A stretch of DNA of 64,000 nt from contig OZ219865.1 in NCBI GenBank assembly GCA_964291675.2, positions 896,001 through 960,000 on the forward strand, written 5' to 3'. The notes under the pieces are model-generated. The model ran no database searches. It saw only the letters and a program-made list of their open reading frames with translations, and was not told the origin of the DNA. The DNA is from Alphaproteobacteria bacterium. GTDB taxonomy: Bacteria > Pseudomonadota > Alphaproteobacteria > MPNO01. Shown one piece after another: positions 1-15,160 of this stretch. A program made the position numbers and the translations under genes. How positions within the stretch are numbered: the stretch's first letter is position 1; every line of letters begins with the position of its first letter.

Positions 1-27
1 AGTGTCCATTATCGGCTAATGGACACT
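1..27. repeat. 11-bp perfect palindrome in the IS66 left end
   Basis: AGTGTCCATTA-tcggc-TAATGGACACT. Confidence 0.8.
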
Positions 28-44
28 ATCGTTGGGGGGCTGCG

Positions 45-392
45 GTGGCGCGTCGTGTACGCCGGTTCTGGTCGGACGATGAGAAGCGCCGGATTGTTGC
101 GCAGAGCTACGCGCCCGGGGTTTCGGTGTCGGTTGTGGCGCGTCGCTACGACGTGAACTCCAACCTGATCTTCACTTGGCGGCGCGATCCCCGCTACAGG
201 CCGGCGGCGGATGGCGAGGGTGCGCCGTCCTTCCTGGCGGTGGAGGTGGTGCCCGATGCGCCGCCGTCAGAGCCGTCTGCGGCATCGGAGGGTCGGATCG
301 AGATTGCGTTGTCGAGCGGCCACCGGGTGAGCGCGATCGGGGCGTTCGACGTGGACGCGCTGTGTCGCGTGGTGCGGGCGCTGGGCGGATGA
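45..392 (+). CDS. tnpA: IS66 accessory protein TnpA (HTH)
   Basis: RRFWSDDEKRRIV...SVSVVARRYDVNSNLIFTWRR; stop overlaps the tnpB ATG (ATGA at 389-392). Confidence 0.9.
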   Translation: MARRVRRFWSDDEKRRIVAQSYAPGVSVSVVARRYDVNSNLIFTWRRDPRYRPAADGEGAPSFLAVEVVPDAPPSEPSAASEGRIEIALSSGHRVSAIGAFDVDALCRVVRALGG

Positions 393-544
393 TCCCGGTT
401 GAGCAGGCGCAGGCTTTCAGCGGGGATTGGGGGCTGATCCGCTTGGATTAATCGAGGTTTTGGGGAAGGTGCCCCCCGGCGATCTTGCAAGAAGGCCGCC
501 GGAGGGCTTGTCTCGGTGACAGCTACATCAACTGAGACGCCCCA

Positions 545-1159
545 ATGTCGCACAAGCTGTTCCGTCACTCCATCCTCTGCAACGCCCGGGTTTGGGACTT
601 TCTGAAGCAGGTCGACGCAGCCGAGGCGGAGGCCTGCCGTGCGGTGGGCTGTCCTCACTGCGGCGGGACGCTTCACAGCGCGGCCTACCCTCGCAAGCCG
701 TACGGTCTGGCGGCGGATCTTCGGGACGATGTGCGGCGCTTCAGCCTGTGCTGTTCGGTGTGCAGGCGCCGGGTGCGTCCTGCCTCGGTGCGTTTCTTCG
801 GTCGGAGGTTCTACGTCGGTGCGCTGTTCCTGCTGGTGAGCGCACTGGCGCTGACCGGCGGGGTGCGGTTGCAGACGATCGCGCGGCGCTGTGGGGTTCC
901 GGTCTCGACGCTGAAGCGCTGGCGTCGCTGGTGGCTGGACGCCTTCCCGGCGACCCCGGAGTGGGCGGCGAAGCGGGGCGAGCTGGCGACACCGGCCGGG
1001 GAAGCGCCTGTGCGCCGGCTGCTGCGCCTGATGCGGGGCCGGGGCCTGCGGGCGCGGCTGCTGCGGAGCCTGGTCTGGCTGATGCCGTGGACCGGTTCTT
1101 GCGCGCTCGGCGCCGGGCCGGCTTCGCCCGCAGAAAGCGTTTCTGTCATGAACGGATAG
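545..1159 (+). CDS. Zn-ribbon plus HTH protein (DUF6431-like), transposon-associated
   Basis: CPHCG and CCSVC cysteine pairs; C-terminal HTH IARRCGVPVSTLKRW. Confidence 0.7.
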   Translation: MSHKLFRHSILCNARVWDFLKQVDAAEAEACRAVGCPHCGGTLHSAAYPRKPYGLAADLRDDVRRFSLCCSVCRRRVRPASVRFFGRRFYVGALFLLVSALALTGGVRLQTIARRCGVPVSTLKRWRRWWLDAFPATPEWAAKRGELATPAGEAPVRRLLRLMRGRGLRARLLRSLVWLMPWTGSCALGAGPASPAESVSVMNG

Positions 1160-1208
1160 GGGCTCTTACACCGGCATCTCCCCAACAGGGCGAGGGAGGG
1201 ATGCCGGG

Positions 1209-2663
1209 ATGGACAGCAACGACGGGAGCGAGCGTCGCGACCGGTGGGCGCGGCTGCGCTTCGCGGTGGTCGGGCCGCTTCTGGCCTCGCCGCCGCCGAA
1301 GGGGAAGCTGCGGGCCGAGCTGGAGCGGCTGGCCGGACGCGAGTGGGAACATCCGTCCGGCAAGGGGCCGGTGCGCTTCTCGGCCTCCACGATCGAGCGC
1401 TGGTACTACCAGGCGCGGGCGCAGGAGCAGGACCCGGTCAAGGCGCTTCGCCGAAAGCCACGGGCCGACATCGGCCGCGAACGGGCGATATCGGCGGCAC
1501 TGATCGAGGTGTTGCGCGATCAGTACCGGGCGCATCCGTCGTGGTCGGCACAGCTGCACCATGAGAACCTGGCGGCGCTGGTCGCGGCCGATCCGGCGCT
1601 CGGCCCGATGCCGTCCTATGCGACGCTCACCCGGGCGATGCGGGCTCGCGGGCTGGTGCGCAAGCGCCGGCGCAAGTGGCACGAGAGCGAGGCGCGGCCG
1701 CCTGTCCAGGCCCGCGAGGTACTGAGCTACGAGGTCACGCGCAGCCACGCCCTGTGGCACAGCGATATGCATACCGCCAAGTGTCGTGTGCTGACGGCCT
1801 CGGGCGAGTGGAAGACGCCGATCCTTCTGGGCTTTCTCGACGACCACTCCCGGCTCGGCTGCCACCTTCAGTGGTATCTCGCCGAGACCGCAGAGGTCTT
1901 CGTCCATGGGCTGTGCCAGGCGTTGATGAAGCGGGGCCTGCCGCGGTCCCTGCTGACCGACAACGGCTCGGCGATGACCGCCGGCGAGGTCGAGGAAGGG
2001 TTGCTCCGGCTCGGCATCGCGGGGGTCACGACGCTCGCGTACAGCCCGCATCAAAATGGAAAGATCGAGACTTTCTGGGGCACGGTCGAATCACGCCTGA
2101 TGGCCCAGCTCGAAGGCGTCGACGCGCTCACCCTGAAGATGCTCAACGACGCCACCGTCGCCTGGCTGGAGCAGGACTATCACCGCCGCGAGCACCGCGA
2201 ACTCGGCATGTCGCCGCATCGGCGCCTCGCCGGGAGCGTCGACGCATCGCGGCCCTGCCCCGGCGCGGCCGAGCTCAAGGCGGCCTTCCGCATCACGAGG
2301 AAGCGCATGCTCCGGCGCTCGGACGGCACCGTCTCGGTCGAGAACATCCGCTACCAGATACCGCCGCCGTGGCGCCACCTGCGCGAGGCCTGGGTCCGCT
2401 ATGCGCGCTGGGACCTCAGCAGCGTCGATCTGGTCGACGGCCGGGGCGGCGAACGGCTGTGCACGCTCTATCCCCTCGACAAGCGCGGCAACGCCGATGG
2501 TGTGCGCCGTCCCATCGGCCCCGGCGACGACGATGGCAAGGGCGGCGAGGGGACAGGCGGACTGCCGCCGCTGCTCAAGAGCATGCTCGACGCGCAGGCT
2601 GCAACCGGCCTGCCGCCGGCATGGCTTGCCTTCGATGACACCCGCGATGATGGAGAACGCTGA
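1209..2663 (+). CDS. DDE transposase (rve core, Mu-transposase-like C-terminus)
   Basis: N-terminal HTH (SASTIERW); WHSD / FLDDHSR / TDNGS / NGKIE catalytic motifs; C-terminal RRSDGTVSVENIRY; GGAGG RBS. Confidence 0.9.
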   Translation: MDSNDGSERRDRWARLRFAVVGPLLASPPPKGKLRAELERLAGREWEHPSGKGPVRFSASTIERWYYQARAQEQDPVKALRRKPRADIGRERAISAALIEVLRDQYRAHPSWSAQLHHENLAALVAADPALGPMPSYATLTRAMRARGLVRKRRRKWHESEARPPVQAREVLSYEVTRSHALWHSDMHTAKCRVLTASGEWKTPILLGFLDDHSRLGCHLQWYLAETAEVFVHGLCQALMKRGLPRSLLTDNGSAMTAGEVEEGLLRLGIAGVTTLAYSPHQNGKIETFWGTVESRLMAQLEGVDALTLKMLNDATVAWLEQDYHRREHRELGMSPHRRLAGSVDASRPCPGAAELKAAFRITRKRMLRRSDGTVSVENIRYQIPPPWRHLREAWVRYARWDLSSVDLVDGRGGERLCTLYPLDKRGNADGVRRPIGPGDDDGKGGEGTGGLPPLLKSMLDAQAATGLPPAWLAFDDTRDDGER

Positions 2664-3496
2664 TGAACCGCGAACACCTCACCCTGTACGGGCTCAAGTG
2701 GAACCCGTTCGCCCCTGACCTCCCGGTCGACAGCCTGATGGCGACTGGCGCCGTCGACAGCTTCTGCCTCAGGATCGAACGCCATCTCGTGCGCCACGGC
2801 GGCTTCGCACTGATCGCCGGAGAGCCCGGAACCGGAAAGAGCGTTGCCCTGCGCCTGCTCGCCCACCGGCTCGGGCGATGCGACGGGCTCAGGGTCGCCG
2901 CCATCACCCACCCGTCCTCGAGACTGTCGGACTTCTACCGCGAGATCGGCGAGCTGTTTGGCGTCGACCTGCTGTACAACAATCGCTGGGCCAGCTTCAA
3001 AAACCTGCGCCAGCGCTGGCTCGCGCATCTCGATGACACCCGCATGCGCCCGGTGTTGCTCATCGACGAGGCCCAGGAACTGCTGCCCTCGGTGTTCTCC
3101 GAGATCCGCCTGCTCGCGTCGACCGACTTCGACTCGCGCGCCATCCTCTCCGTCGTCTTCGCCGGTGACAACCGCCTGCTCGACCGGCTCCGCCAGCCCG
3201 ACCTGCAGCCCATCGCCTCGCGTATCCGACAGCGTCTGCTGATGACCCGGACCGAGGACGCCGACCTGGCCGGCCTGCTCGACCATCTGCTCGAAGAGGC
3301 CGGCAATCCGGCGCTGATGACCGCCGGGCTCAGGGACACCCTCGTCACCCATGCCGCAGGAAACCCCAGGGCACTCACCGTCATGGCTGATGCCGTGCTC
3401 GCAGCCGGTGCCGAGAAGGATCGCGAGGTGCTCGACGAGAAGCTCTTCATCGAGACCCTCGGCGAGGCACCGCCAGCCAGGCGGGCCCGGCGATGA
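2663..3496 (+). CDS. ExeA/TnsC/MuB-like AAA+ ATPase
   Basis: YGLKWNPF N-terminus, Walker A GEPGTGKS, Walker B LLIDEAQ, SRI arginine finger, GNPR; coupled to the transposase. Confidence 0.9.
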   Translation: MNREHLTLYGLKWNPFAPDLPVDSLMATGAVDSFCLRIERHLVRHGGFALIAGEPGTGKSVALRLLAHRLGRCDGLRVAAITHPSSRLSDFYREIGELFGVDLLYNNRWASFKNLRQRWLAHLDDTRMRPVLLIDEAQELLPSVFSEIRLLASTDFDSRAILSVVFAGDNRLLDRLRQPDLQPIASRIRQRLLMTRTEDADLAGLLDHLLEEAGNPALMTAGLRDTLVTHAAGNPRALTVMADAVLAAGAEKDREVLDEKLFIETLGEAPPARRARR

Positions 3497-4482
3497 CCGG
3501 CTTCCCGACACGGCCACCGGCCGAACTCGAGGAGCGGCCGCGGGAGCGGCAGTGGCTGGTCGATGCCCTGTGGAGCGAACAGGGGGTCGGCATCGTCGGC
3601 GGCGAGCCCAAGTGCGGCAAGTCCTTCCTCGCGCTGGACCTCGCCGTCGCGGTGGCTGCAGGAGTGCCCTGCCTGCGCCACTTCCGCCCCGCGGCAAGCG
3701 GCACCGTGTTGCTCTTCGCCGCCGAGGACGCCGGTCACATCGTGCGCGACCGCCTCAAGGGCATCGCCCGGGCCGCCGGCGCCGACTTCGAGGCCCTCGA
3801 CATCGCCGTCATCGACGTGCCCACGCTCCGCCTCGATCATCGCCTCGACCGGCAGCGGCTGCTGGAGACCGTCGAACGGATCGGACCGCGCCTCCTCGTC
3901 CTCGATCCCCTGGTCCGCCTGCATGGCGTCGACGAGAACGCGGTTGCGGAAGTCGCTCCCATCCTCGGCTTCCTGCGCGACCTGCAGCGCCGCTTCGGGA
4001 CCGCTGTGCTGCTCGTCCACCACGCTCGCAAGAGTGGCGCCAGCCGCCCCGGCCAGGCGCTGCGCGGCAGCAGCGAGCTGCATGCCTGGGGCGACAGCAA
4101 TCTCTACCTGCGCCGGCGCGACGGGCAGATCGTCATGACCGCCGAGCATCGCGCCGCACCCGGCCTCAACAATATCGAGATCGAGCTTGCCGATGACGGC
4201 GAAGGACCAGCGCTGCAGCTCCGGCGGACAGGACCTCACCAGGCTCCGCCGCAGCCGGACAGCGCCGAACAGCGGATCGCCCAGGTGCTCGCGACAGCCG
4301 AATCCCCACTCGTGCAGTCCGAGATCCGAAAACGCGCCGGGGTACGCAACGCGACTGTCTCCGCGGCACTGCACGGGCTTGTGCGCGAGGGACGGGTCGA
4401 GCGCGGGACGGGAGGTCGCTACCGCTTCCTCGGAACCGCGGCGAACCAAGCCGACAACCCGACGGACAGCCACAACCCGTAG
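3493..4482 (+). CDS. RecA-family (AAA_25, RepA/DnaB-like) helicase with C-terminal winged HTH
   Basis: WLVDALW, Walker A GEPKCGKS, AAED, Walker B LLVLDP, LVHHARK, LRGSSEL; wHTH QSEIRKRAGVRNATVSAALHGL. Confidence 0.85.
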   Translation: MTGFPTRPPAELEERPRERQWLVDALWSEQGVGIVGGEPKCGKSFLALDLAVAVAAGVPCLRHFRPAASGTVLLFAAEDAGHIVRDRLKGIARAAGADFEALDIAVIDVPTLRLDHRLDRQRLLETVERIGPRLLVLDPLVRLHGVDENAVAEVAPILGFLRDLQRRFGTAVLLVHHARKSGASRPGQALRGSSELHAWGDSNLYLRRRDGQIVMTAEHRAAPGLNNIEIELADDGEGPALQLRRTGPHQAPPQPDSAEQRIAQVLATAESPLVQSEIRKRAGVRNATVSAALHGLVREGRVERGTGGRYRFLGTAANQADNPTDSHNP

Positions 4483-4497
4483 GCGAAGCAGCCCCTC

Positions 4498-4551
4498 TTC
4501 CCGTTCCCGTTCCGGCGAACCCTTAAGCGTTGCAGGGAACGGGAACGGGAA
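4498..4551. repeat. 16-bp perfect inverted repeat built from 6-bp iterons
   Basis: TTCCCGTTCCCGTTCC (4498-4513), 22-nt spacer, GGAACGGGAACGGGAA (4536-4551). Confidence 0.9.
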
Positions 4552-6571
4552 CACCAGCGCACAATGCCCCACGAAACTGCCTGAAGCGATCGGCCAATGG
4601 CCGAAAGCTCTGCTTACGGCCATGGCAGCCCTCTGGCGCGGGGACGGCGGCGGGTCACCCGAAGGGCCGTAGCGGAGCGAAGGAGCCGCGAAGCGGCTTG
4701 AAGCGCCGACGGCCTCGCGACACTCCCCGCCCGGCCTTCCTGCAAACGGCAGACGATCCCCATCGAATAACGCGAAATCCGCACCATCAAACAACGTGCG
4801 CGCGCTCACCGGTCCCGTCCTCGACCCGGGTATGGCTGGCCTGCGGGGTGACCGACATGCGCAAGGGGTTCCCGGGGCTTGCGGCGCAGGCGGAGCGGGT
4901 GTTGAAGGCGGATCCGCATTGCGGCCATCTCTTCATCTACCGGGGCCGTCGGGGCGACCTGATCAAGATGATCTGGTGGGACGGCCAGGGAGCGTGCCTG
5001 TTCTCGAAGCGTCTTGAGCGCGGCCGTTTCGTGTGGCCGTCGGCGTCGGAGGGCAAGGTTTCGGTGACGCCGGCGCAGCTGTCGATGCTGTTGGAGGGGA
5101 TCGACTGGCGGGCGCCGGTTCGCACCTGGCGGCCTTTGGCGGCGGGATGATTCATCGTTTATATACAATAGGTTGACTCCTATCCGGGCTTCCCTTTGGC
5201 GGCCTTTTCCTGTAGGCTGCGGTCATGCTCGAAGAGGCGCATTCCCTGCCTGACGACATCGCCGCACTGAAGGCGATGGTGCTGTCCTCGCGGGCCGAGG
5301 TGGCGGCGCGGGACGCCGAGTTGCGCAACCGTGACCTTCTGATCGAGAAGCTCAAGCACCAGCTTGCGGGTCTGCGCCGCCAGCGCTTCGGCGCCACTTC
5401 GGAGGCCCTCGATCAGCTTGAGCTCGGGCTGGAGGACGAGGAGATCGCGCGCTCGGCCGAGACGTTTGCCGAGCCAGCCCCGGCGGCAAAGAGACAGCCC
5501 AAGCGCCGTCCCTTGCCGGACCACCTGCCGCGCGAGGAGACGCATCTCGCGCCTTCAGGCGATCGCTGCGCGGACTGCGGCGGTCGCCTCAAGCGTCTCG
5601 GCGAGGATGTGACCGAGGAGCTGGAGTACATCCCCGGCCGCTTCGTGGTGAAGCGCATCGTGCGCCCGCGCCTGGCCTGCGGCGGCTGTGAGACGTTCCA
5701 CCAAGCGCCGCTGCCGTCGCGGCCGATCGAGCGCGGCCGTCCGGGCCCGGGCCTTCTGGCGCATGTGCTGGTCTCGAAGTACTGCGATCACCTGCCGCTC
5801 TACCGTCAGTCGCGTATCTTCGCCCGCGATGGCGTCGATCTCGACCGCTCGACGCTGGCCGGCTGGGTGGGCAAGGCGACGGCGCTGCTGGAGCCCCTGG
5901 CCGATGCCGTCGGGCGCCATGTTCTGGGCGGCCAAGCCCTGTTCGCCGACGACACCCCGGTCAAGTTGCTGGCGCCGGGGACCGGCAAGACGGCGACGGG
6001 TCGGGCCTGGACCTATGTCCGCGACGAGCGTCCGTGGAAGGGCGAGGCATCGCCGGCGGCGTGGTATCGCTTCTCGGCCGACCGCAAGGCGGCGCATCCG
6101 AAGAGCCATCTCGCGGGCTACGCCGGCTGGATGCACTCGGACGGCTATGCCGGCTTCGGCGCACTGGCGCGCGCGGGGCCGGTCCGCGAGGTCGCCTGCC
6201 TGGCCCATGTGCGGCGCAAGTTCTTCGACGTCCACGCCGCTCAGGGCTCGGCGGTCGCCGCCGAGGCGCTGGAACGGATCGCCGCGCTCTACGCCATCGA
6301 GAAGGAGGTCCGCGGGCAGCCCCCAGAGCGCCGCGTCGCGATCCGCCGCGCCAAGGCCGCGCCGCACCTCGATGAGTTCGAGCGCTGGCTGCAAACGCAA
6401 CTGCCGAAGCTCTCCGCCAAGACCCCGCTGGCGGCGGCGATCCGCCATGCGCTGACCCGGCTGAAGCGCCTGCGGCCCTATATCGAGCACGGCTTCCTCG
6501 AGATCGACAACAACCCGGCCGAGCGCGCGATGCGCCCGATCGCGACGATGGAGTCATTCTGCACCCCTTCT

Positions 6572-8644
6572 TCAAGTGTCTGAAAACATTGACATCTGAT
6601 CCCGACATGAAGCGCGACGCGGGTCTTTCCGCAGTGCCAGGGCGTTGGCGACCCGCTCGGAATGGAGGTCTTTGGCCCTGATTTGCCAGGGCGCTCCGGG
6701 AACGAGTTGCGTGGCAGGTAGCGTTCCATCCTCGATCAGGCGCCTGAGGGTATGGCTGGTCGTGCCCAACTCTTTCGCCGCCTCGGTCATGGTGCGCCAG
6801 TCGCCCTGCTTGTCCGCTGAGAGGTAGCCGTCGATCCCGTTCACACGCCGGATCGATCCGACCCGGTGAGCGGTCCAACTCTTGTGCTGCCCGGTCCGCA
6901 TACCCATCCGGTTGAGCGACGCGGCGATATGTTCGTCCGACCATCGCCCGGCCATGCTGCGTATCACTGCCAGAGCTTCCTCGGGCGTTCGGCAGCCATG
7001 TTCGCCGCTCTTGGGCTTGCGGACCCTGAGACGGGAATGACGGCCACCCATCCAGTGGATCGTCAGCAGGACGTCACGCGCCTCTTCGTCGACATCGACG
7101 ATTATGCCCATGATCAGGGTGCGCACGAGACGCTGGCGGGCGCGCATGCTCACCCCGGGCGCGTTCCAGGCGGCCTTCAGGTCGTCGGCAAGTCCGGCCA
7201 GGTCGGGGACAGTGGGCCGCGGCGACGGCATCGCGCCCAGCCTTGCTTCGCACGCCTGGACGCGTCGAAGCGCTGCCTCCCAACTCTTCTCCAGCTCGGC
7301 GGCGATCAGCCGGTTGTCCGGATCGCAGGCGGCGTAGCGCCGCTCGGCGAGCGCCGCCTCGTAGCGGGCTTGCTGCAGATCCAGCTCGGCCACCCGTTGC
7401 TGTTCGGAAAGACCCTCCGCGTTCATCCGCTCGGCTTCCAACGAGGCTTCCACCGCCATGGGCTCCACGACGCGGAGGATCTCATCGGCAACGGCCGCAT
7501 CCACACGCGCACCCCCGAACCCCAGACAGGGCTCTAGCTCGAGCTGGAGGTGTCGCCGATTGCAGCGGTAGACAGGATTGCCGGGCGTGCGACCGGAATA
7601 GGCAACGCTCATCGTGCGTCCGCAGCGTGCGCAACTGAGGAGGCCGCCAAGAAGCGCCCGCCCGCCGCGCCCCGACTTCGTGCCCCCCGCCTTGCCGAAG
7701 GCATTGGCGGCGAGCTGCGCCTGGTTGCGCTCGAACTCCGGCCAGTCGATGTAGCCCTCGTGATGGTCCTTCAGCACGACCTCCCATTCCGCCATCGGCT
7801 TGCGGTGTCCATAGCTCTTGCGCACGCGCCCGTCGACGATCTCGGTCCGCCGCTCGCTTTTGCCGTAAGCGTAGACCCCGGCGTAGAAAGGGTTCTTCAA
7901 CACCGAAATTACGTTGCGATAGCGGATCGGCGTCCAGTCGAAGGAGACCATTGTCCTGCCATCCGACGGGCGTGGGAAGCAAAGCTTCTGCCCGCTCAGC
8001 GCCAGCAACACCTGCCGCGCGCTGCCAAGCTCGCGAAACCGGGCGAATACCTGACGGATCGCTTCCTGAACCCGAATGTCGGGGTCCAGCCCCAGCCCGG
8101 CCTCGGGATGCCAGACGTAGCCGATCGGGACGCTGATGCGAAGCTCGCCGCGGGCGGCCTTGGAGCGGGCGGCCTCGAACATCCGAGCGCGCAGAACGCC
8201 GAGTTCGAACTCGCTGATCTGGCCCTTCATGCCGAGCAGCAGACGATCGTTGGGGTGGCGAGGATCGTAGATGCCATCCTGGTCGATGACGCGTGCCTCG
8301 ACGAGACCGCAGAGCTCGAGAAGATGGTGCCAGTCCCGGCCGTTGCGAGAGACCCGCGAAGCCTCGAAACAAAGCACGGCTCCAACGTCCCCGGCGCACA
8401 GCCAGGCGACGAGGCGCTCGAAACCGGGCCGCGCAACGGCACCGTCCGCCGACAGGCCCTGATCGTCGTCGATGACTTCGACCCGGGCAAAGCCGTGCCC
8501 GCGCGCCACATCGACGAGATCGTATTGGCGGCGCTGGCTCTCCAGATTGTTCCGCATCTGCTGGGGCGTGGACTGACGGACATAGACCACGGCCTTGCGC
8601 GTCAACACCGATCGCGGCAACGCTTCAGCGACGCCCATCGTCAT
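6572..8644 (-). CDS. Large serine recombinase with Zn ribbon, coiled coil and C-terminal excisionase-like HTH
   Basis: YVRQS catalytic motif, EASRVSRN, LKNPFYAG, CARCG; C-terminal TMTEAAKELGTTSHTLRRLIEDG. Confidence 0.92.
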   Translation of the reverse strand: MTMGVAEALPRSVLTRKAVVYVRQSTPQQMRNNLESQRRQYDLVDVARGHGFARVEVIDDDQGLSADGAVARPGFERLVAWLCAGDVGAVLCFEASRVSRNGRDWHHLLELCGLVEARVIDQDGIYDPRHPNDRLLLGMKGQISEFELGVLRARMFEAARSKAARGELRISVPIGYVWHPEAGLGLDPDIRVQEAIRQVFARFRELGSARQVLLALSGQKLCFPRPSDGRTMVSFDWTPIRYRNVISVLKNPFYAGVYAYGKSERRTEIVDGRVRKSYGHRKPMAEWEVVLKDHHEGYIDWPEFERNQAQLAANAFGKAGGTKSGRGGRALLGGLLSCARCGRTMSVAYSGRTPGNPVYRCNRRHLQLELEPCLGFGGARVDAAVADEILRVVEPMAVEASLEAERMNAEGLSEQQRVAELDLQQARYEAALAERRYAACDPDNRLIAAELEKSWEAALRRVQACEARLGAMPSPRPTVPDLAGLADDLKAAWNAPGVSMRARQRLVRTLIMGIIVDVDEEARDVLLTIHWMGGRHSRLRVRKPKSGEHGCRTPEEALAVIRSMAGRWSDEHIAASLNRMGMRTGQHKSWTAHRVGSIRRVNGIDGYLSADKQGDWRTMTEAAKELGTTSHTLRRLIEDGTLPATQLVPGAPWQIRAKDLHSERVANALALRKDPRRASCRDQMSMFSDT

Positions 8645-10993: not shown

Positions 10994-11468
10994 ATGACCG
11001 TCAAGTTCATCCATACGTCGGACTGGCAGGTCGGGAAGGTCTTCCGCTTTGTCGACAATGCGACGATGGGGCTTCTCCAGGAAGCCCGACTGCGGGCCAT
11101 ATCGCGGCTGGGTGAACTGGCCGGGGAGCACGACGCGGACCATGTACTGGTGGCAGGCGACGTCTATGACATGGAGGCGCTGTCGCCGCGTTCGCTTAAC
11201 CAACCACTGGAGCGGATGCGTGGATTCCCCAGCGTCCGGTGGCATCTGTTGCCGGGCAATCATGATCCGCACCGCCCCAACGGGATCTGGGATCAGCTCC
11301 TCCGCATAGGTTTGCCCGAGAACGTCAGCGTTCATGTCGCGCCCGAGCCGGCGGTAGTTGAGAACGAGGACTTTGTCCTCTTGCCGGCACCGCTGCTTCA
11401 TCGCCGGACGCTCGACGATCTCACGGCCTACATGGACGACGTTGACTTGCCCGAAGGTCTAGTTCGGT
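10994..11468 (+). pseudogene. SbcD/Mre11-like metallophosphoesterase, 3'-truncated at IS1380
   Basis: FIHTSDWQ, LVAGDVYD, LPGNHD; stops before the expected AHG motif. Confidence 0.8.
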
Positions 11469-13076
11469 CTATTCGGCACGGGGCGATGAAGTAGCGGCGA
11501 ACGTGGCGTAAGTCGTTGTCATAGGGTAGAAATTCGTTGTCCAGCGACCTTCTGCCCCGGCAACGAAAGCGCCACGCCCGCCATCACCGAAGTTAGCCTT
11601 CTCCCGTTCGATCTTCCAGCCGTACAACGCAAGAAGGTGACCGCCGATTTCGCGGGCGGCCTGATCTCTTCCGACGGCGGTCTGGTGCTGCTGGGCGCGG
11701 CGGAGCGCCGGCTCGGGCTGGCCGATGCGCTGGCCGGCTGCATCCGGGAGTGGCGCGACCCGGCGCGGACGGTGCACACGCTGGCGGCGATGCTGCGCTT
11801 CCGGATGTTCGCGATCGCCTGTAGGTACGAAGACGCCGACGACTGCGATGCGCTGCGCGGCGATCCGCTGTTCAAGCTGGCGGTGGGCCGGGCGCCGGAG
11901 AGCGGGCGCGATCTGTGTTCCCAGCCCACCATGAGCCGTCTGGAGAATGGGCCCTCGCGGATCGCGGTGGCGCGCCTGACGGCGGCGCTGGTCGACATCT
12001 TCTGTCGCTCCTTCCCGATCCCGCCGGCGGCGATCACGCTGGACATCGACGACACCTGCGACCGGGTTCACGGCCACCAGCAGCTCTCGCTGTTCAACGC
12101 GCATTACGACACGCGCTGCTTTCTTCCGGTCCATGTCTACCATGTCGAGAGCGGCAGGCCGGTGGCGGTTCTCCTGCGCCCCGGCAAGACGCCGTCGGGC
12201 GTCGAGGTCCGCACCCTGCTCAAGCACCTGGTGCGCCGCATCCGCCGGCACTGGCCGCGCACCCGGCTGACCGTCCGGGGCGACAGCCATTACGGCCGCC
12301 GCGAGGCGATGGACTGGTGCGAGGCGAACGGCGTCGACTACATCTTCGGCCTGGCCGGCAACGCCGCCCTGCACGCCCTTGCCTACGCCGTCGGCGACGA
12401 CCTCAAGCTGCGCCGCGCCGAGGCCGGGGTCGACCGGATGCGCGGCTTCGCCGACTTCGCTTACGCCGCCGGATCGTGGAACCGCGAACGCCGCGTCGTC
12501 GCCCGGCTGGAGGCCACCGCGCGCGGCTTCGACGCGCGCTACATCGTCACCTCGCTCGAAGGCTCGCCGCGCCGTCTCTACGAAGCGGTGTACTGCGCGC
12601 GCGGCCAGGCCGAGAACCTCATCAAGCAGCACAAGGTCCAGCTCGCCTCCGACCGCACCTCCTGCCAGAGCCCGACCGCCAACCAGTTCCGCCTGGTGCT
12701 CCACACCGCCGCCTACTGGCTGATGCTCGCGCTCCGCGACGCCGTGCCGCGCAGGATGCCGCTCCACTGGGCCGAGTTCGCGACCCTCCGCAAGAGCCTG
12801 CTCAAGATCGGCGCCCGCGTCGTCGAGAAGGCCGCGCGCATCCGCATCCACTTCGCATCGGCCTGCCCCGACGCCGCCCTGTTCCGCATGCTGGCCGGGC
12901 GGCTCGCGGCCTCGGGACCCTGACCGCCGGGGCGACGTGCCCCAAGAGCCCGAGACCCTTCAACCCCCAACCCTGACAACGAAAACCGCGGACCCCGACG
13001 CCCCAAAGGCGCCGAACGGTGGCCCTTGCGCGCTCGACATTAACCGTTAAACGCGCCGTCTCGCGAATAAGTCGGG
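11463..13076 (+). mobile_element. IS1380-family insertion sequence (ends approximate)
   Basis: Imperfect ends TTCGGTCTATTC / GAATAAGTCGGG, each flanked by CTAG; single transposase. Confidence 0.75.
11583..12923 (+). CDS. IS1380-family DDE transposase (homologous start position is ATC at 11583; first GTG at 11637)
   Basis: LPFDLPAV..KKVTADFAGG..SSDGG, SQPTMSRLEN, TLDIDDT, RGDSHY, YCARGQAENLIK. Confidence 0.88.
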   Translation: MTEVSLLPFDLPAVQRKKVTADFAGGLISSDGGLVLLGAAERRLGLADALAGCIREWRDPARTVHTLAAMLRFRMFAIACRYEDADDCDALRGDPLFKLAVGRAPESGRDLCSQPTMSRLENGPSRIAVARLTAALVDIFCRSFPIPPAAITLDIDDTCDRVHGHQQLSLFNAHYDTRCFLPVHVYHVESGRPVAVLLRPGKTPSGVEVRTLLKHLVRRIRRHWPRTRLTVRGDSHYGRREAMDWCEANGVDYIFGLAGNAALHALAYAVGDDLKLRRAEAGVDRMRGFADFAYAAGSWNRERRVVARLEATARGFDARYIVTSLEGSPRRLYEAVYCARGQAENLIKQHKVQLASDRTSCQSPTANQFRLVLHTAAYWLMLALRDAVPRRMPLHWAEFATLRKSLLKIGARVVEKAARIRIHFASACPDAALFRMLAGRLAASGP

Positions 13077-13264
13077 CTAGAGCGCGCTAAGGTACGCAAA
13101 ATTTCGACTGACGGTGACGTCGGCGCCGAGGCGGCCGACCAGTTCCGCGTGGTTCTTTCCGAAGGCCATGACGATCTCGGGCTCGGCGTGATCACAATCC
13201 CGGTCGTGGTGCTCGCGGGCCTGCTCGGACCGCTCCCGATGGCGGGCGGGGCCGTGGTGCTCAG

Positions 13265-13339
13265 CCTGGGAACGCCGGAGAAGAACTGCGAAACGTCGTG
13301 GCTGGGCGAGAGCGGCTCGGGCGGGCCTAGCGGTCCCAC
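13265..13339 (-). pseudogene. GNAT (TacT/AtaT-like) toxin, N-terminal remnant only
   Basis: PLGPPEPLSPSHDVSQFFSGVP overlapping the DUF1778 stop, then similarity is lost. Confidence 0.6.
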
Positions 13340-13584
13340 TGGGGCTGGCGCGCGTAACGCGCCTTTACGGCCGGATCGATCACCACCGGCGCGTCGAGCG
13401 CGGCGACGAAATCGTCCCAGGTCTCGTCGTCGAGTGCGATGACGGGGCGCTTGTTGAGGATCTCGATCGCCGCCGCCTCGCTCGACCGGAGCACGAACTC
13501 GGTTCGGGTCAGCCCCCGGATTTCGGCGGCACGGTCGATGACGGCCAGGCGCTCGCTGGACGTGCGGAAGTTTACCTGGGGCAT
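13327..13584 (-). CDS. DUF1778 (TacA-like) RHH antitoxin
   Basis: VNFR...IDRAAEIRGLTRTEFVLRSSEAAA...LDDETWDDFVAALDAP; AGGAG RBS. Confidence 0.85.
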   Translation of the reverse strand: MPQVNFRTSSERLAVIDRAAEIRGLTRTEFVLRSSEAAAIEILNKRPVIALDDETWDDFVAALDAPVVIDPAVKARYARQPQWDR

Positions 13585-13696
13585 GGCGGTCTCCTTCCTG
13601 CGCAAGGCGCGGGGTGTTGCCTCGATTTCAACGTATCGGATTTGTGTAGATGGTCGACAATCGGCCGCCCGCGGGCCGGCTGCGCAGCAGGACGGT

Positions 13697-13755
13697 GAGC
13701 GTCGGGTGATCGCCCGGCTCGAGGCCACCGCGCGCGGCTCCGACGCCCGCTACAT
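13697..13755 (+). pseudogene. About 60-bp internal fragment of an IS1380 transposase
   Basis: ERRVIARLEATARGSDARYI versus ERRVVARLEATARGFDARYI at about 12486-12546. Confidence 0.75.
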
Positions 13756-13784
13756 TCGGTGATGTTTCGTGGTCGGAACGATGT

Positions 13785-14234
13785 TCATCCAGGCTCGGCA
13801 GCCCAAGGATCTACGGTCTCGAGTCCGGTGTTACGGAACTCGCCCGTGTTCCGGGTCACGATTGCAAGTCCGCGCGTCGCCGCCACCGCCGCGAGGAAAG
13901 CATCTGGCACATGGTCGTCGAGCGGTTCGCCGCGCCGGCGCTTGTCCTCCATGATCCGCGCACAGGCCTGCGCATCGGCCTGGGACCAGTCGATGATCCG
14001 GTCTTCGAACAGCTCGTCGAGAAGATCCTGGAACCGGTCGGCGAGGTCGCGCCGTCGCCGGCCTGGATTGATCCGACCGATTCCGTCCAGCACCTCCCAG
14101 ACGGTGACAGAAGAGAGCCCGAGGCCTTCGTCGGCGATCGAATCCAGAAAGGCGGCAACCTGAGGCTCGGGCTGCGGCCGCATCATTTCGGAGACGACGT
14201 TCGTGTCTATAAGCCACGCGAGCGGTGCGGTCAT
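13785..14234 (-). CDS. PIN-domain VapC/FitB-like toxin
   Basis: WLIDTNVVSEMMRPQP, DAFLAAVA, IVTRNTGEF...VDPW. Confidence 0.9.
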   Translation of the reverse strand: MTAPLAWLIDTNVVSEMMRPQPEPQVAAFLDSIADEGLGLSSVTVWEVLDGIGRINPGRRRRDLADRFQDLLDELFEDRIIDWSQADAQACARIMEDKRRRGEPLDDHVPDAFLAAVAATRGLAIVTRNTGEFRNTGLETVDPWAAEPG

Positions 14235-14488
14235 TCCTCCTCCTCAGGGGAGAATGACAGCGGCTTGTAGCCGCGACGCACCGTCGGTGGAAGCTCCACA
14301 CCGTGCTCTTCCCCGAAATGCCGCGCGAAGGCCTCGGACGGTTTCGGGCGGCGCTCGGTCTTTGTGCGCTTCTCATGGATCAGGCGGCGAACCAACTCTT
14401 CCATCGACACCCCAATTTGGCGGGCTTCGCGTCGGAGCCAGGACTTGTCGCCGGGATCGATATCGCGGACGGTAATGCTTGTGCTCAT
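14231..14488 (-). CDS. FitA-like RHH antitoxin
   Basis: SITVRDID...LRREA...SMEELVRRLI...GVELP; 4-nt overlap with the toxin. Confidence 0.85.
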   Translation of the reverse strand: MSTSITVRDIDPGDKSWLRREARQIGVSMEELVRRLIHEKRTKTERRPKPSEAFARHFGEEHGVELPPTVRRGYKPLSFSPEEEE

Positions 14489-14599
14489 TTCGGCGGCTCC
14501 GGCAGGGTCGAAAGTCTGTTCATAGGCTATCATGACAGCAAATTATGCTATCATGGCTTGCGGGTCAAAGTCTCGTGGCCGCCATTCTCGACCGAATAT

Positions 14600-14714
14600 G
14601 CAGGGTACTCAGACAATGCCAGCTACAGCGACATGACTTTCGAGCAGAAGGTTAGTCACTACGCCAAGCAGAACCTGTTAGCCCAATCGCTACACCCCAT
14701 CGCCTACGAGAAGA
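14600..14714 (+). pseudogene. Fragment resembling the C-terminus of a DUF262/DUF1524 (GmrSD-like) protein
   Basis: NASYSDMTFEQKVSHYAKQNLLAQSLHPIAYE, cut by an IS66 end; low GC. Confidence 0.45.
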
Positions 14715-14925
14715 GTAAGCGGTTCGAACGCCACACGTGGGTTTCAGCTTGACGAGCGGGCGAAGTTCCACGGGAGCAGTTCGTCGATGCGGTCGTTGGG
14801 ATGGCCAGCCGCGATGGCTTCGAGGGTGGCCTTGAGCCAGGCGTAGGGCTCGACGCCGTTCAACCTGGCCGTCTGGGTGAGCGAAGCGATCCGGCCCCAG
14901 GCGACCGCGCCTTCGTCATGACCGG
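14715..14925 (-). mobile_element. IS66 right-end remnant (IRR and tnpC C-terminus)
   Basis: GTAAGCGG at 14715; GHDEGAVAWGRIASL...NGVEPYAWLK...IDELLPWN, similar to 22533-22740. Confidence 0.85.
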
Positions 14926-14948
14926 CGATGCGGCGCGTCGATCAAGGG

Positions 14949-15160
14949 TTAGCCTCCGAGCGCGACGCCGACCGTCTCGGCGGCGTCGTGCATCATGGCG
15001 TCGGCGGTATGTGTGTATTTCAGCGTCGTTTCTGCCCTGCAGTGGCCGAGTAGCCTGCCGATGGCCAGCACGGTTTCGCCCCGCCTGGGCGCCAGGCTTG
15101 CCACCGAGTGCCGAAGGTCGTGGAGATGCACGTCCTCAAGCTCCGCCTCGGTGCGGACAT
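14949..15160 (-). pseudogene. Tyrosine integrase C-terminal fragment
   Basis: HLHDLRHSVAS...IGRLLGH...TTLKYTH. Confidence 0.8.

Follow-up and report, generated by a model that had tools for sequence, protein, structure and literature searches.

The window analyzed here is a stretch of 64,000 nucleotides from an alphaproteobacterial genome (contig OZ219865.1, positions 896,001 to 960,000), and it contains at positions 400–4808, on the plus strand, a transposon of 4409 bp with TG..CA termini. The element comprises four genes, all co-oriented, of which genes 2, 3, and 4 overlap in a chain. Gene 1 (545–1159, plus strand) encodes a 204-residue protein with a Zn-ribbon of two CxxC motifs and a helix-turn-helix (HTH) domain (HTH_23, 2.5e-6). 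Gene 2 (1209–2663, plus strand) encodes a DDE (rve) transposase of 484 residues, with an N-terminal HTH (HTH_32) and a conserved C-terminal tail. Gene 3 (2663–3496, plus strand) encodes a MuB/ExeA-like AAA+ ATPase of 277 residues (AAA_22, 2.4e-21), and gene 4 (3493–4482, plus strand) a protein of 329 residues, in which a RepA-like RecA-fold ATPase (residues ~1–245) is fused to a winged helix (residues ~255–312). The stop codon of gene 2 shares one nucleotide with the start codon of gene 3 (TGATG), and that of gene 3 overlaps the start codon of gene 4 by four nucleotides (ATGA). A palindrome and a hairpin-rich non-coding block lie between gene 4 and the right end.

Multiple copies and an empty site define the boundaries. 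When the same genome was searched at the DNA level, four copies were recovered at 100% identity, each spanning positions 1–4409 of the query exactly, on two contigs and with unrelated flanks. The window copy starts with TGAG, ends with CTCA, and interrupts the tnpB gene of an IS66-family insertion sequence (IS), where the target-site duplication (TSD) CCGGT is present on its left (395–399) and right (4809–4813) sides. An intact twin of this IS66 element elsewhere in the genome (locus L173) represents the empty site, reading ATG ATC CCG GTC CCG TCC with one CCGGT. Contigs of the public run X2 also contain a joint from position 400 to 4815 that omits 4414 bases, corresponding to 4409 + 5, with a shorter side of 24 letters that makes it weak evidence alone. 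Thus, the exact ends, the duplication, and the perfectly rejoined tnpB proposed in a preliminary description of this DNA hold, as do the four co-oriented genes with translational coupling of the last three and the suggestion of recent activity, which the identical copies and the empty site support.

Among 44 insertions of seven element variants, all start with TGAG and end with CTCA, and the duplications measure 5 bp in 26, 4 bp in 12, and 3 bp and 6 bp in one each, with none in four. Neither the TSDs nor the insertion sites exhibit an obvious consensus. The transposon is active and its ends are defined; the transposase joins the TG..CA ends into staggered target cuts that are mostly 5 bp apart. 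The four insertions lacking a duplication (loci L013, L021, L032, and L035) could have arisen by recombination between copies or by intramolecular replicative events. Multiple identical copies also occur in many genomes of a set of 80 loci from species-representative genomes, which is used below.

Transposition core genes

The four cysteines of gene 1 are invariant across 16 homologues, and the protein is probably a DNA-binding accessory factor or regulator. No TniQ model matched it, and its best match in the PDB-profile search was AlpA (E 0.07). Its structure model is weak (predicted local distance difference test score, pLDDT, of 64), and Foldseek returned nothing at E <= 0.001, the top hit being MqsA (E 0.7). 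For gene 2, the best curated model is IS481 (NF033577), which is covered over profile positions 24–282 of 284 and reaches 114 bits against a cut-off of 224. Residues 56–431 also match the PHROGs transposase family phrog_310 (2.3e-38), and the PDB-profile search yielded matches limited to retroviral integrase cores. Residues 43–270 of gene 3 match phrog_296, annotated as 'DNA transposition protein' (2.6e-20); PHROG families have no curated cut-off. The matches of gene 3 to the ATPases of other transposons are weak: TniB reaches 16.5 bits (cut-off 22.4), ShTnsC E 0.13, and the PADLOC TnsC model E 0.0039. An IS21 affiliation was not supported, as NF033546 scored 40 bits against a cut-off of 160 and gene 3 has no IstB_IS21 match in Pfam. 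None of the curated IS and transposon models scored above its own cut-off against the proteins of the element. Judged by these profile matches, the core is an IS481-related transposase with a MuB/ExeA-like AAA+ partner and a Zn-ribbon/HTH protein encoded upstream; in other words, a pair resembling Mu A and B in which the catalytic core is IS481-like.

Gene 4 encodes a predicted RepA-like helicase

The ATPase region of gene 4 matches AAA_25 (PF13481) with 130 bits (1.1e-37), far above the cut-off of 27. Its sole solved relative detectable by sequence is RepA of plasmid RSF1010 (1g8y, E 3.2e-11). The AlphaFold model of gene 4 (pLDDT 74.6) superimposes on RepA with a template modeling (TM) score of 0.69 and a root-mean-square deviation of 3.0 over 242 columns, and RepA is the fold target with the best coverage. 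The label "helicase" is used here because RepA is both the only sequence-level PDB match and the best-covered fold target. The invariant motifs comprise the Walker A motif (GGEPKC.KS), an acidic residue after strand 2, the Walker B motif, HH..K, and an RGS arginine finger, which are retained in 18 close and 19 distant homologues, down to 35% identity. Since the match to RepA is found by both sequence and fold, and the NTPase motifs are invariant, gene 4 is likely to be enzymatically competent. We accordingly predict that gene 4 is a hexameric helicase of the RSF1010 RepA type, the hexamer and the unwinding activity being putative. The clade to which it belongs comprises 487 clusters at 50% identity (E <= 1e-30).

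Contents of the fourth operon position

The distribution of the helicase gene was examined around the 80 loci, 78 of which have a transposase at least 63% identical to gene 2. The helicase gene occupies the same place at 77 of these 78 loci; at the lone helicase-less locus the copy is truncated, and subsequent insertions have split several of the others. The possibility raised in the preliminary description, that the helicase is absent from most close relatives, is therefore not borne out. Farther away in the family, the picture changes. Scanning metagenomes with a transposase of 52% identity, taken from an element without the helicase, yielded another 80 contigs, of which seven carry it. In a tree built from the transposases of 66 distinct elements with a scorable fourth position, from which 33 distinct transposases were left out because a contig end or a cut ATPase gene precedes that position, the helicase is present in 28 and absent in 38, a pattern requiring at least two changes. 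The clade of the window element has it in all 21 members. Hence, the helicase is a trait of nearly all close relatives and not of the whole family.

The helicase-less elements have more than three genes: most of them contain a small open reading frame (ORF) of ~89–105 residues immediately behind the ATPase gene, in most cases joined to it by the ATGA overlap that is also seen for gene 4. A profile of this protein built from 17 seeds matched 51 loci; the helicase is present at none of them, and the profile has no match in the window. Phenylalanine is the last residue of all 48 complete homologues, most of which terminate in acidic-x-P-F (mostly D-x-P-F), and this terminal residue is one of only three invariant columns. 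The 17 seeds were chosen by the tail motif, while the other 34 matches were not. No Pfam, NCBIfam, or PADLOC family matched the protein. The conserved C-terminal hexapeptide of the single-stranded DNA (ssDNA)-binding protein SSB, DDDIPF, is described as the contact to SSB partner proteins (PMC5872125), and the tail of the small protein resembles, at the sequence level, this C-terminal tip. The small proteins are helical and coupled translationally to the ATPase gene; they are encoded at loci L091–L170, for example, at L099:3250–3519, L150:4105–4395, and L159:3524–3841.

A third arrangement includes a fifth gene. Directly after the helicase, 8–9 of the 28 distinct helicase elements encode a DUF3991-Toprim protein of 285–289 residues, which is found in none of the 38 others and is not present in the window. 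Its N-terminus matches a DnaG-like model, which is the DnaG-like part of a PADLOC DRT model; a defense role for this gene was considered and rejected, as that part was its sole match. The fifth gene is located at L029:10405–11274, L073:10397–11254, and 20 other loci, where the element is then ~5.2 kb long. The exchange of the helicase for an SSB-tail protein, and its association with a Toprim primase, make it more likely that the helicase acts on the transposition intermediate or replicates a copy of the element, as the preliminary description supposed.

These occupants also bear on a different view of gene 4, in which it is no helicase and instead constitutes a DNA-binding switch for target choice, immunity, or control of the AAA+ protein, in the manner of TnsC/TnsD/TniQ or MuB. 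A winged helix close to a specific repeat array suggests site-specific DNA binding, KaiC rings and RAD51 filaments are on a par with helicases in the fold search, and insertion sites without an obvious consensus leave room for some selector. However, the repeat array lies inside the element and not in its targets, and the only solved relative at the sequence level is a replicative helicase. Because the gene is associated with a Toprim primase (8–9 elements) and replaced by an SSB-tail protein, replication is indicated rather than targeting, and we regard a regulatory or target-selecting function as unlikely.

Palindrome and hairpin block downstream of gene 4

Directly after the stop codon of the helicase gene, positions 4498–4551 form a palindrome (inverted repeat I5) with three tandem GGGAAC-type hexamers in each arm. 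As ssDNA, it is predicted to fold with −21.5 kcal/mol (z −4.24), and none of 200 shuffled sequences folds as well. Behind the helicase gene, the tandem unit is present in 19 of the 23 elements that could be scored, and in two more as judged by eye; four loci with a partial helicase and a further locus with just 28 bp of downstream sequence were left unscored. In the 38 helicase-less elements, it yields just two weak one-strand matches. Across 13 variants, the arms covary, with both sides changed in 5 of 16 pairs, and pairing is retained in 83.9% of cells as compared with 29–63% in slid controls. A hairpin would account for this covariation, as would a symmetric protein-binding site. The palindrome is situated 258–311 bp inward of the right end, not at the tip, and we consider it a candidate iteron-like site for binding or loading, or a hairpin.

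The palindrome is followed by the non-coding block of ~150 nt (4585–4730), which contains several GC-rich hairpins and is kept in the primase-less variants. Its ssDNA fold has a z-score of −3.17. No Rfam family was assigned to it, the sole match being a chance microRNA hit (E 0.77). A signal for priming or loading is one possible function of the block; a small RNA is another.

A helicase with a winged helix, an iteron-like palindrome, and sometimes a Toprim primase could also be read as an RSF1010-like origin module. In such a mini-replicon, the excised or copied-out circle would replicate autonomously for a while, raising the copy number of the donor rather than acting at a fork. RSF1010 combines its RepA helicase and primase with iterons and with hairpins that serve as priming sites, and the parts list of the element parallels it. 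The tandem repeats on both arms of the palindrome, placed well inside the right end, are compatible with this reading. In addition, the transposase is IS481/IS3-like, and IS3-type families move via circles according to one report (10.1101/2023.06.07.543989). On the other hand, no joints indicative of circles or cointegrates occur in the contigs of three public runs, which cannot show rare forms; no initiator is present besides the fused winged helix; and the small SSB-like-tail protein that takes the fourth position elsewhere is not an origin-type function. The mini-replicon consequently carries a low probability in our assessment.

Helicase genes in other transposon lineages

Closely related helicases are found in a second transposon lineage. 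The lineage-2 helicase is 71–73% identical to that of the window over its full length and 85% identical over the first ~230 residues, and the hairpin block is nearly identical by eye. In contrast with the helicase, the lineage-2 transposase is 27% and the ATPase 25–28% identical to the window proteins, and the ends read TGTTGT..ACAACA. Its ORF1 is unrelated to gene 1 (hhalign probability 0.4%). The lineage-2 transposase reaches 211 bits with the IS481 model (cut-off 224) and matches Mu-transpos_C (PF09299) at 2.5e-7. Two genomes that also host lineage 1 contain 9 and 30 identical lineage-2 copies, and the helicase is present at all 12 loci examined. The TSD of this lineage is TCTGG. Examples are L033:2219–6593, which interrupts gene 1 of a lineage-1 copy, and L057 (minus strand, ~11100–15000). 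A scan of viral contigs with the lineage-2 transposase returned two weak loci at 32–34% identity.

A third lineage exhibits the order DDE, AAA_22, helicase in three of three genomes, with a helicase 43% identical to gene 4. Among 400 genomes sampled across the phylum, strong AAA_25–winged-helix matches (E <= 1e-40) outside the genome of the window were limited to this third lineage, all of them beside a DDE and AAA_22 pair. Within the lineage of the window element, the main clades of the helicase and transposase trees agree, although not everywhere; between lineages, the trees are discordant and the cassette has been swapped. The co-evolution of helicase and transposase raised in the preliminary description thus holds for the main clades of this lineage and fails between lineages. 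We infer from these comparisons that the helicase gene moves as a cassette together with the palindrome and the hairpin block, and has been exchanged between transposon lineages.

A cassette that travels between unrelated transposase lineages with its own non-coding DNA, and that many family members lack, might be a passenger, i.e., a selfish or cargo module such as a replicon fragment of a plasmid or integrative element, or an unrecognized defense gene. This reading is at odds with several observations. The helicase gene is translationally coupled to the ATPase gene, and its position and orientation are constant in three lineages. Elements present in 4 to 30 identical copies have kept it intact, its motifs being invariant, and in the survey of 400 genomes its strong profile matches, from three of three genomes, are all adjacent to the DDE and AAA_22 pair. 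No PADLOC defense model matched gene 4, and its identification as a defense system was rejected on that account. Because of the ATGA overlap, the same position at 77 of 78 close loci, and the recurrence with three transposase lineages, we regard the helicase as integrated in the operon, and a passenger status appears very improbable.

Proposed mechanism

The explanation that we consider best, and toward which we lean with modest confidence, is that the fourth operon position is a replication-start module and that the window element brings its own RepA-like helicase instead of hiring that of the host. In the proposed mechanism, the gene 4 helicase would be loaded on the element DNA after strand transfer, or after the joining of the first strand in a copy-out pathway, and would open the element DNA for a host polymerase. 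The host PriA/DnaB restart primosome, as hired by phage Mu, would then not be required. For the same step, the sister elements with the small adaptor would recruit host SSB-binding replication proteins through its SSB-like acidic D-x-P-F tail, and other sister elements would employ a helicase with a Toprim primase.

A broader proposition, which we advance tentatively and are not quite persuaded of, is that these elements belong to a widespread DDE transposon family with an interchangeable operon slot for replication of the intermediate. The slot may hold an SSB-tail-mimic adaptor, a RepA-like helicase with its own loading site, or a helicase with a Toprim primase, an arrangement that could be termed "bring-your-own-primosome". 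If true, this strategy would be distinct from both the "hiring" of host replication by Mu and the "hijacking" ascribed to the Tn3 family.

Several findings weigh against a replication-start function. KaiC, RAD51, and DnaB are similar to RepA in their Foldseek E-values with the gene 4 model, and a fold alone does not prove a helicase; helicase activity, replication, circles, and cointegrates are all putative. No resolvase was identified, and 40 of the 44 insertions have duplications of 3–6 bp, which marks them as simple insertions and makes them a poor fit to plain intramolecular replicative transposition. The priA gene scores above the cut-off in the genome of the window and in all five further host genomes examined, so that the helicase fills no gap in the host; the idea that the hosts lack PriA was ruled out on this basis. 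The absence of the helicase in many family members (38 of 66) indicates that it is dispensable for the chemistry, and its exchange between partners that are 25–27% identical argues against tight coupling to the transposase and ATPase. Lastly, the proposed SSB mimicry relies on a motif of 4–6 residues.

Comparison with known transposition and replication systems

The element resembles phage Mu in its DDE transposase and AAA+ partner, which match phrog_310 and phrog_296, families that we take to hold Mu-type A and B proteins. It further shares with Mu the TG..CA ends and a mostly 5-bp duplication. In contrast, the window element contains no phage genes, and its transposase lacks the Pfam Mu-transpos_C domain. 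Another difference concerns replication: Mu hires PriA, DnaB, and DnaC from the host, whereas the element encodes a helicase. The Zn-ribbon/HTH gene is a further addition relative to Mu. After strand transfer, Mu requires ClpX, additional factors, and the PriA primosome for the loading of DnaB, in its replicative and non-replicative pathways alike (PMC3325207), and this transfer of the intermediate to replication proteins is a shared requirement and the precedent for the mechanism proposed here. From its sequence, the element would work most like a Mu-type A/B system.

The likeness to IS481 consists in the curated model that best fits the catalytic region of the transposase. IS481 elements have a single gene and are about 1 kb long, unlike the window element with its four genes, a C-terminal transposase extension of 145 residues, an ATPase partner, and a score (114 bits) below the cut-off of 224. 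With Tn7-like, Tn5053, and Tn552 elements, it has in common an operon that encodes both the transposase and its NTPase partner, a TSD of 5 bp, and multiple subterminal repeats. It differs from them in that no TnsA was found among the four genes in Pfam and NCBIfam, PF09299 was not reported in the window transposase, and none of the four ORFs of the element encodes a recombinase or resolvase. For gene 1, whose structure model is weak, no match to a TniQ/TnsD model was obtained. Helicase carriage is, to our knowledge, not known in the Tn7-like, Tn5053, and Tn552 families, and our literature search found no element of these families with a helicase. The initial label "Mu/Tn7-like" therefore stands for Mu in view of the PHROG matches; for Tn7 it lacks support, with IS481 as the best curated model and TnsA, TniQ, and Mu-transpos_C not found.

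On the replication side, gene 4 shares its fold and motif set with RSF1010 RepA, and the adjoining repeat array and the primase-like gene of some relatives extend the likeness. Nevertheless, gene 4 has a winged-helix fusion, is part of the operon of a transposon and not of a plasmid replicon, and is accompanied by no separate initiator. The primase of the relatives is of the DUF3991-Toprim type, from which RepB' of RSF1010 differs in primase type. The nearest functional analogue is the IS excision enhancer (IEE), which is of the primase/helicase type and has as its substrates the intermediates of circle-forming IS elements. IEE is encoded off the element, combines an archaeo-eukaryotic primase (AEP)-type primase-polymerase with a UvsW-like superfamily 2 (SF2) ATPase, and promotes excision (10.1101/2023.06.07.543989). 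The genes of the window family, in comparison, are located inside the element and are of the RecA-fold and Toprim types, unrelated to the domains of IEE.

Tn4430 of the Tn3 family has been proposed to insert into passing forks, a "hijacking" as opposed to a "hiring" of replication, in a recent preprint (10.64898/2026.05.30.728999). The problem, replication of the strand-transfer product, is the same, but the family of the window element seems to supply components of its own, either a helicase, joined in some members by a primase, or an adaptor whose tail is SSB-like. The hand-over of strand-transfer or copy-out intermediates of DDE transposons to replication is known in detail for Mu alone and debated for the Tn3 family. 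In the present family, an exchangeable slot, occupied by a helicase, a helicase with a primase, or an SSB-like-tail adaptor, seems to encode this step, and the compact four-gene element would render it genetically separable and testable.

Our literature search, which covered neither ISfinder and TnCentral nor supplements, returned no description of a unit of DDE, AAA_22, and AAA_25 genes; it did return an unannotated 18-kb cyanobacterial insertion listing a DDE integrase and an ExeA protein. With no curated IS or transposon model above its cut-off, the claim of a distinct family is upheld, and we assign the element, which is active, to a family of four-gene DDE transposons without a previous description. 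This family is highly successful, with 4 to 30 identical copies per genome and thousands of metagenome homologues, and thus matters for the plasticity of host genomes. It also matters for annotation, in which its genes now bear just the names "AAA family ATPase" or "DDE-type integrase".

Element ends and insertion context

The left end (400–544, plus strand) begins with a terminal, imperfect inverted repeat of ~12 nt (TGAGC.GGCGCA) and is conserved in six element variants, as is a TTGCAA box that precedes gene 1 and lies within an inverted repeat. Near 446–456, a subterminal motif of the AATCGAGG type was seen by eye. As ssDNA, the left end folds no better than shuffled sequences (z −0.65). 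A promoter and terminator consensus scan returned 0 sites, and the left end contains no match to the sigma-70 consensus. The right end (4760–4808, plus strand) carries direct CCATC[GA]AA.AAC repeats at 4760–4771 and 4785–4796, identified as conserved columns in an alignment of seven right ends, followed by the terminal inverted repeat ending in CTCA.

The host IS66-family element occupies positions 45–6583 on the plus strand, with tnpA at 45–392, tnpB split into 389–399 and 4809–5150, and tnpC at 5225–6583, and is identified by the Pfam domains HTH_Tnp_1, DDE_Tnp_IS66, zf-IS66, and LZ_Tnp_IS66. IS66 elements adjoin or contain three of the four copies in this genome (L001, L002, and L003; within ~135 bp). 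Each of the three is associated with a separate IS66-family element, one in tnpB, one in tnpC, and one ahead of tnpA. A general preference for IS66 targets was not supported, as an IS66 match lies within 7 kb at just 7 of 78 loci elsewhere. A megablast search of the element against a plasmid collection gave no match. A decayed relative in the same genome (L005, G000:C1:13–2889) has 77% DNA identity and two in-frame TGA codons in the transposase, and is cut by a contig end. A large serine recombinase of 690 residues (Resolvase, Recombinase, Zn_ribbon_recom, and HTH_17 domains) is encoded on the minus strand at 6572–8644 of the window, where it abuts and overlaps the 3′ end of tnpC. Because of this overlap, and since tnpC looks short (452 residues), the IS66 copy may have been interrupted a second time.

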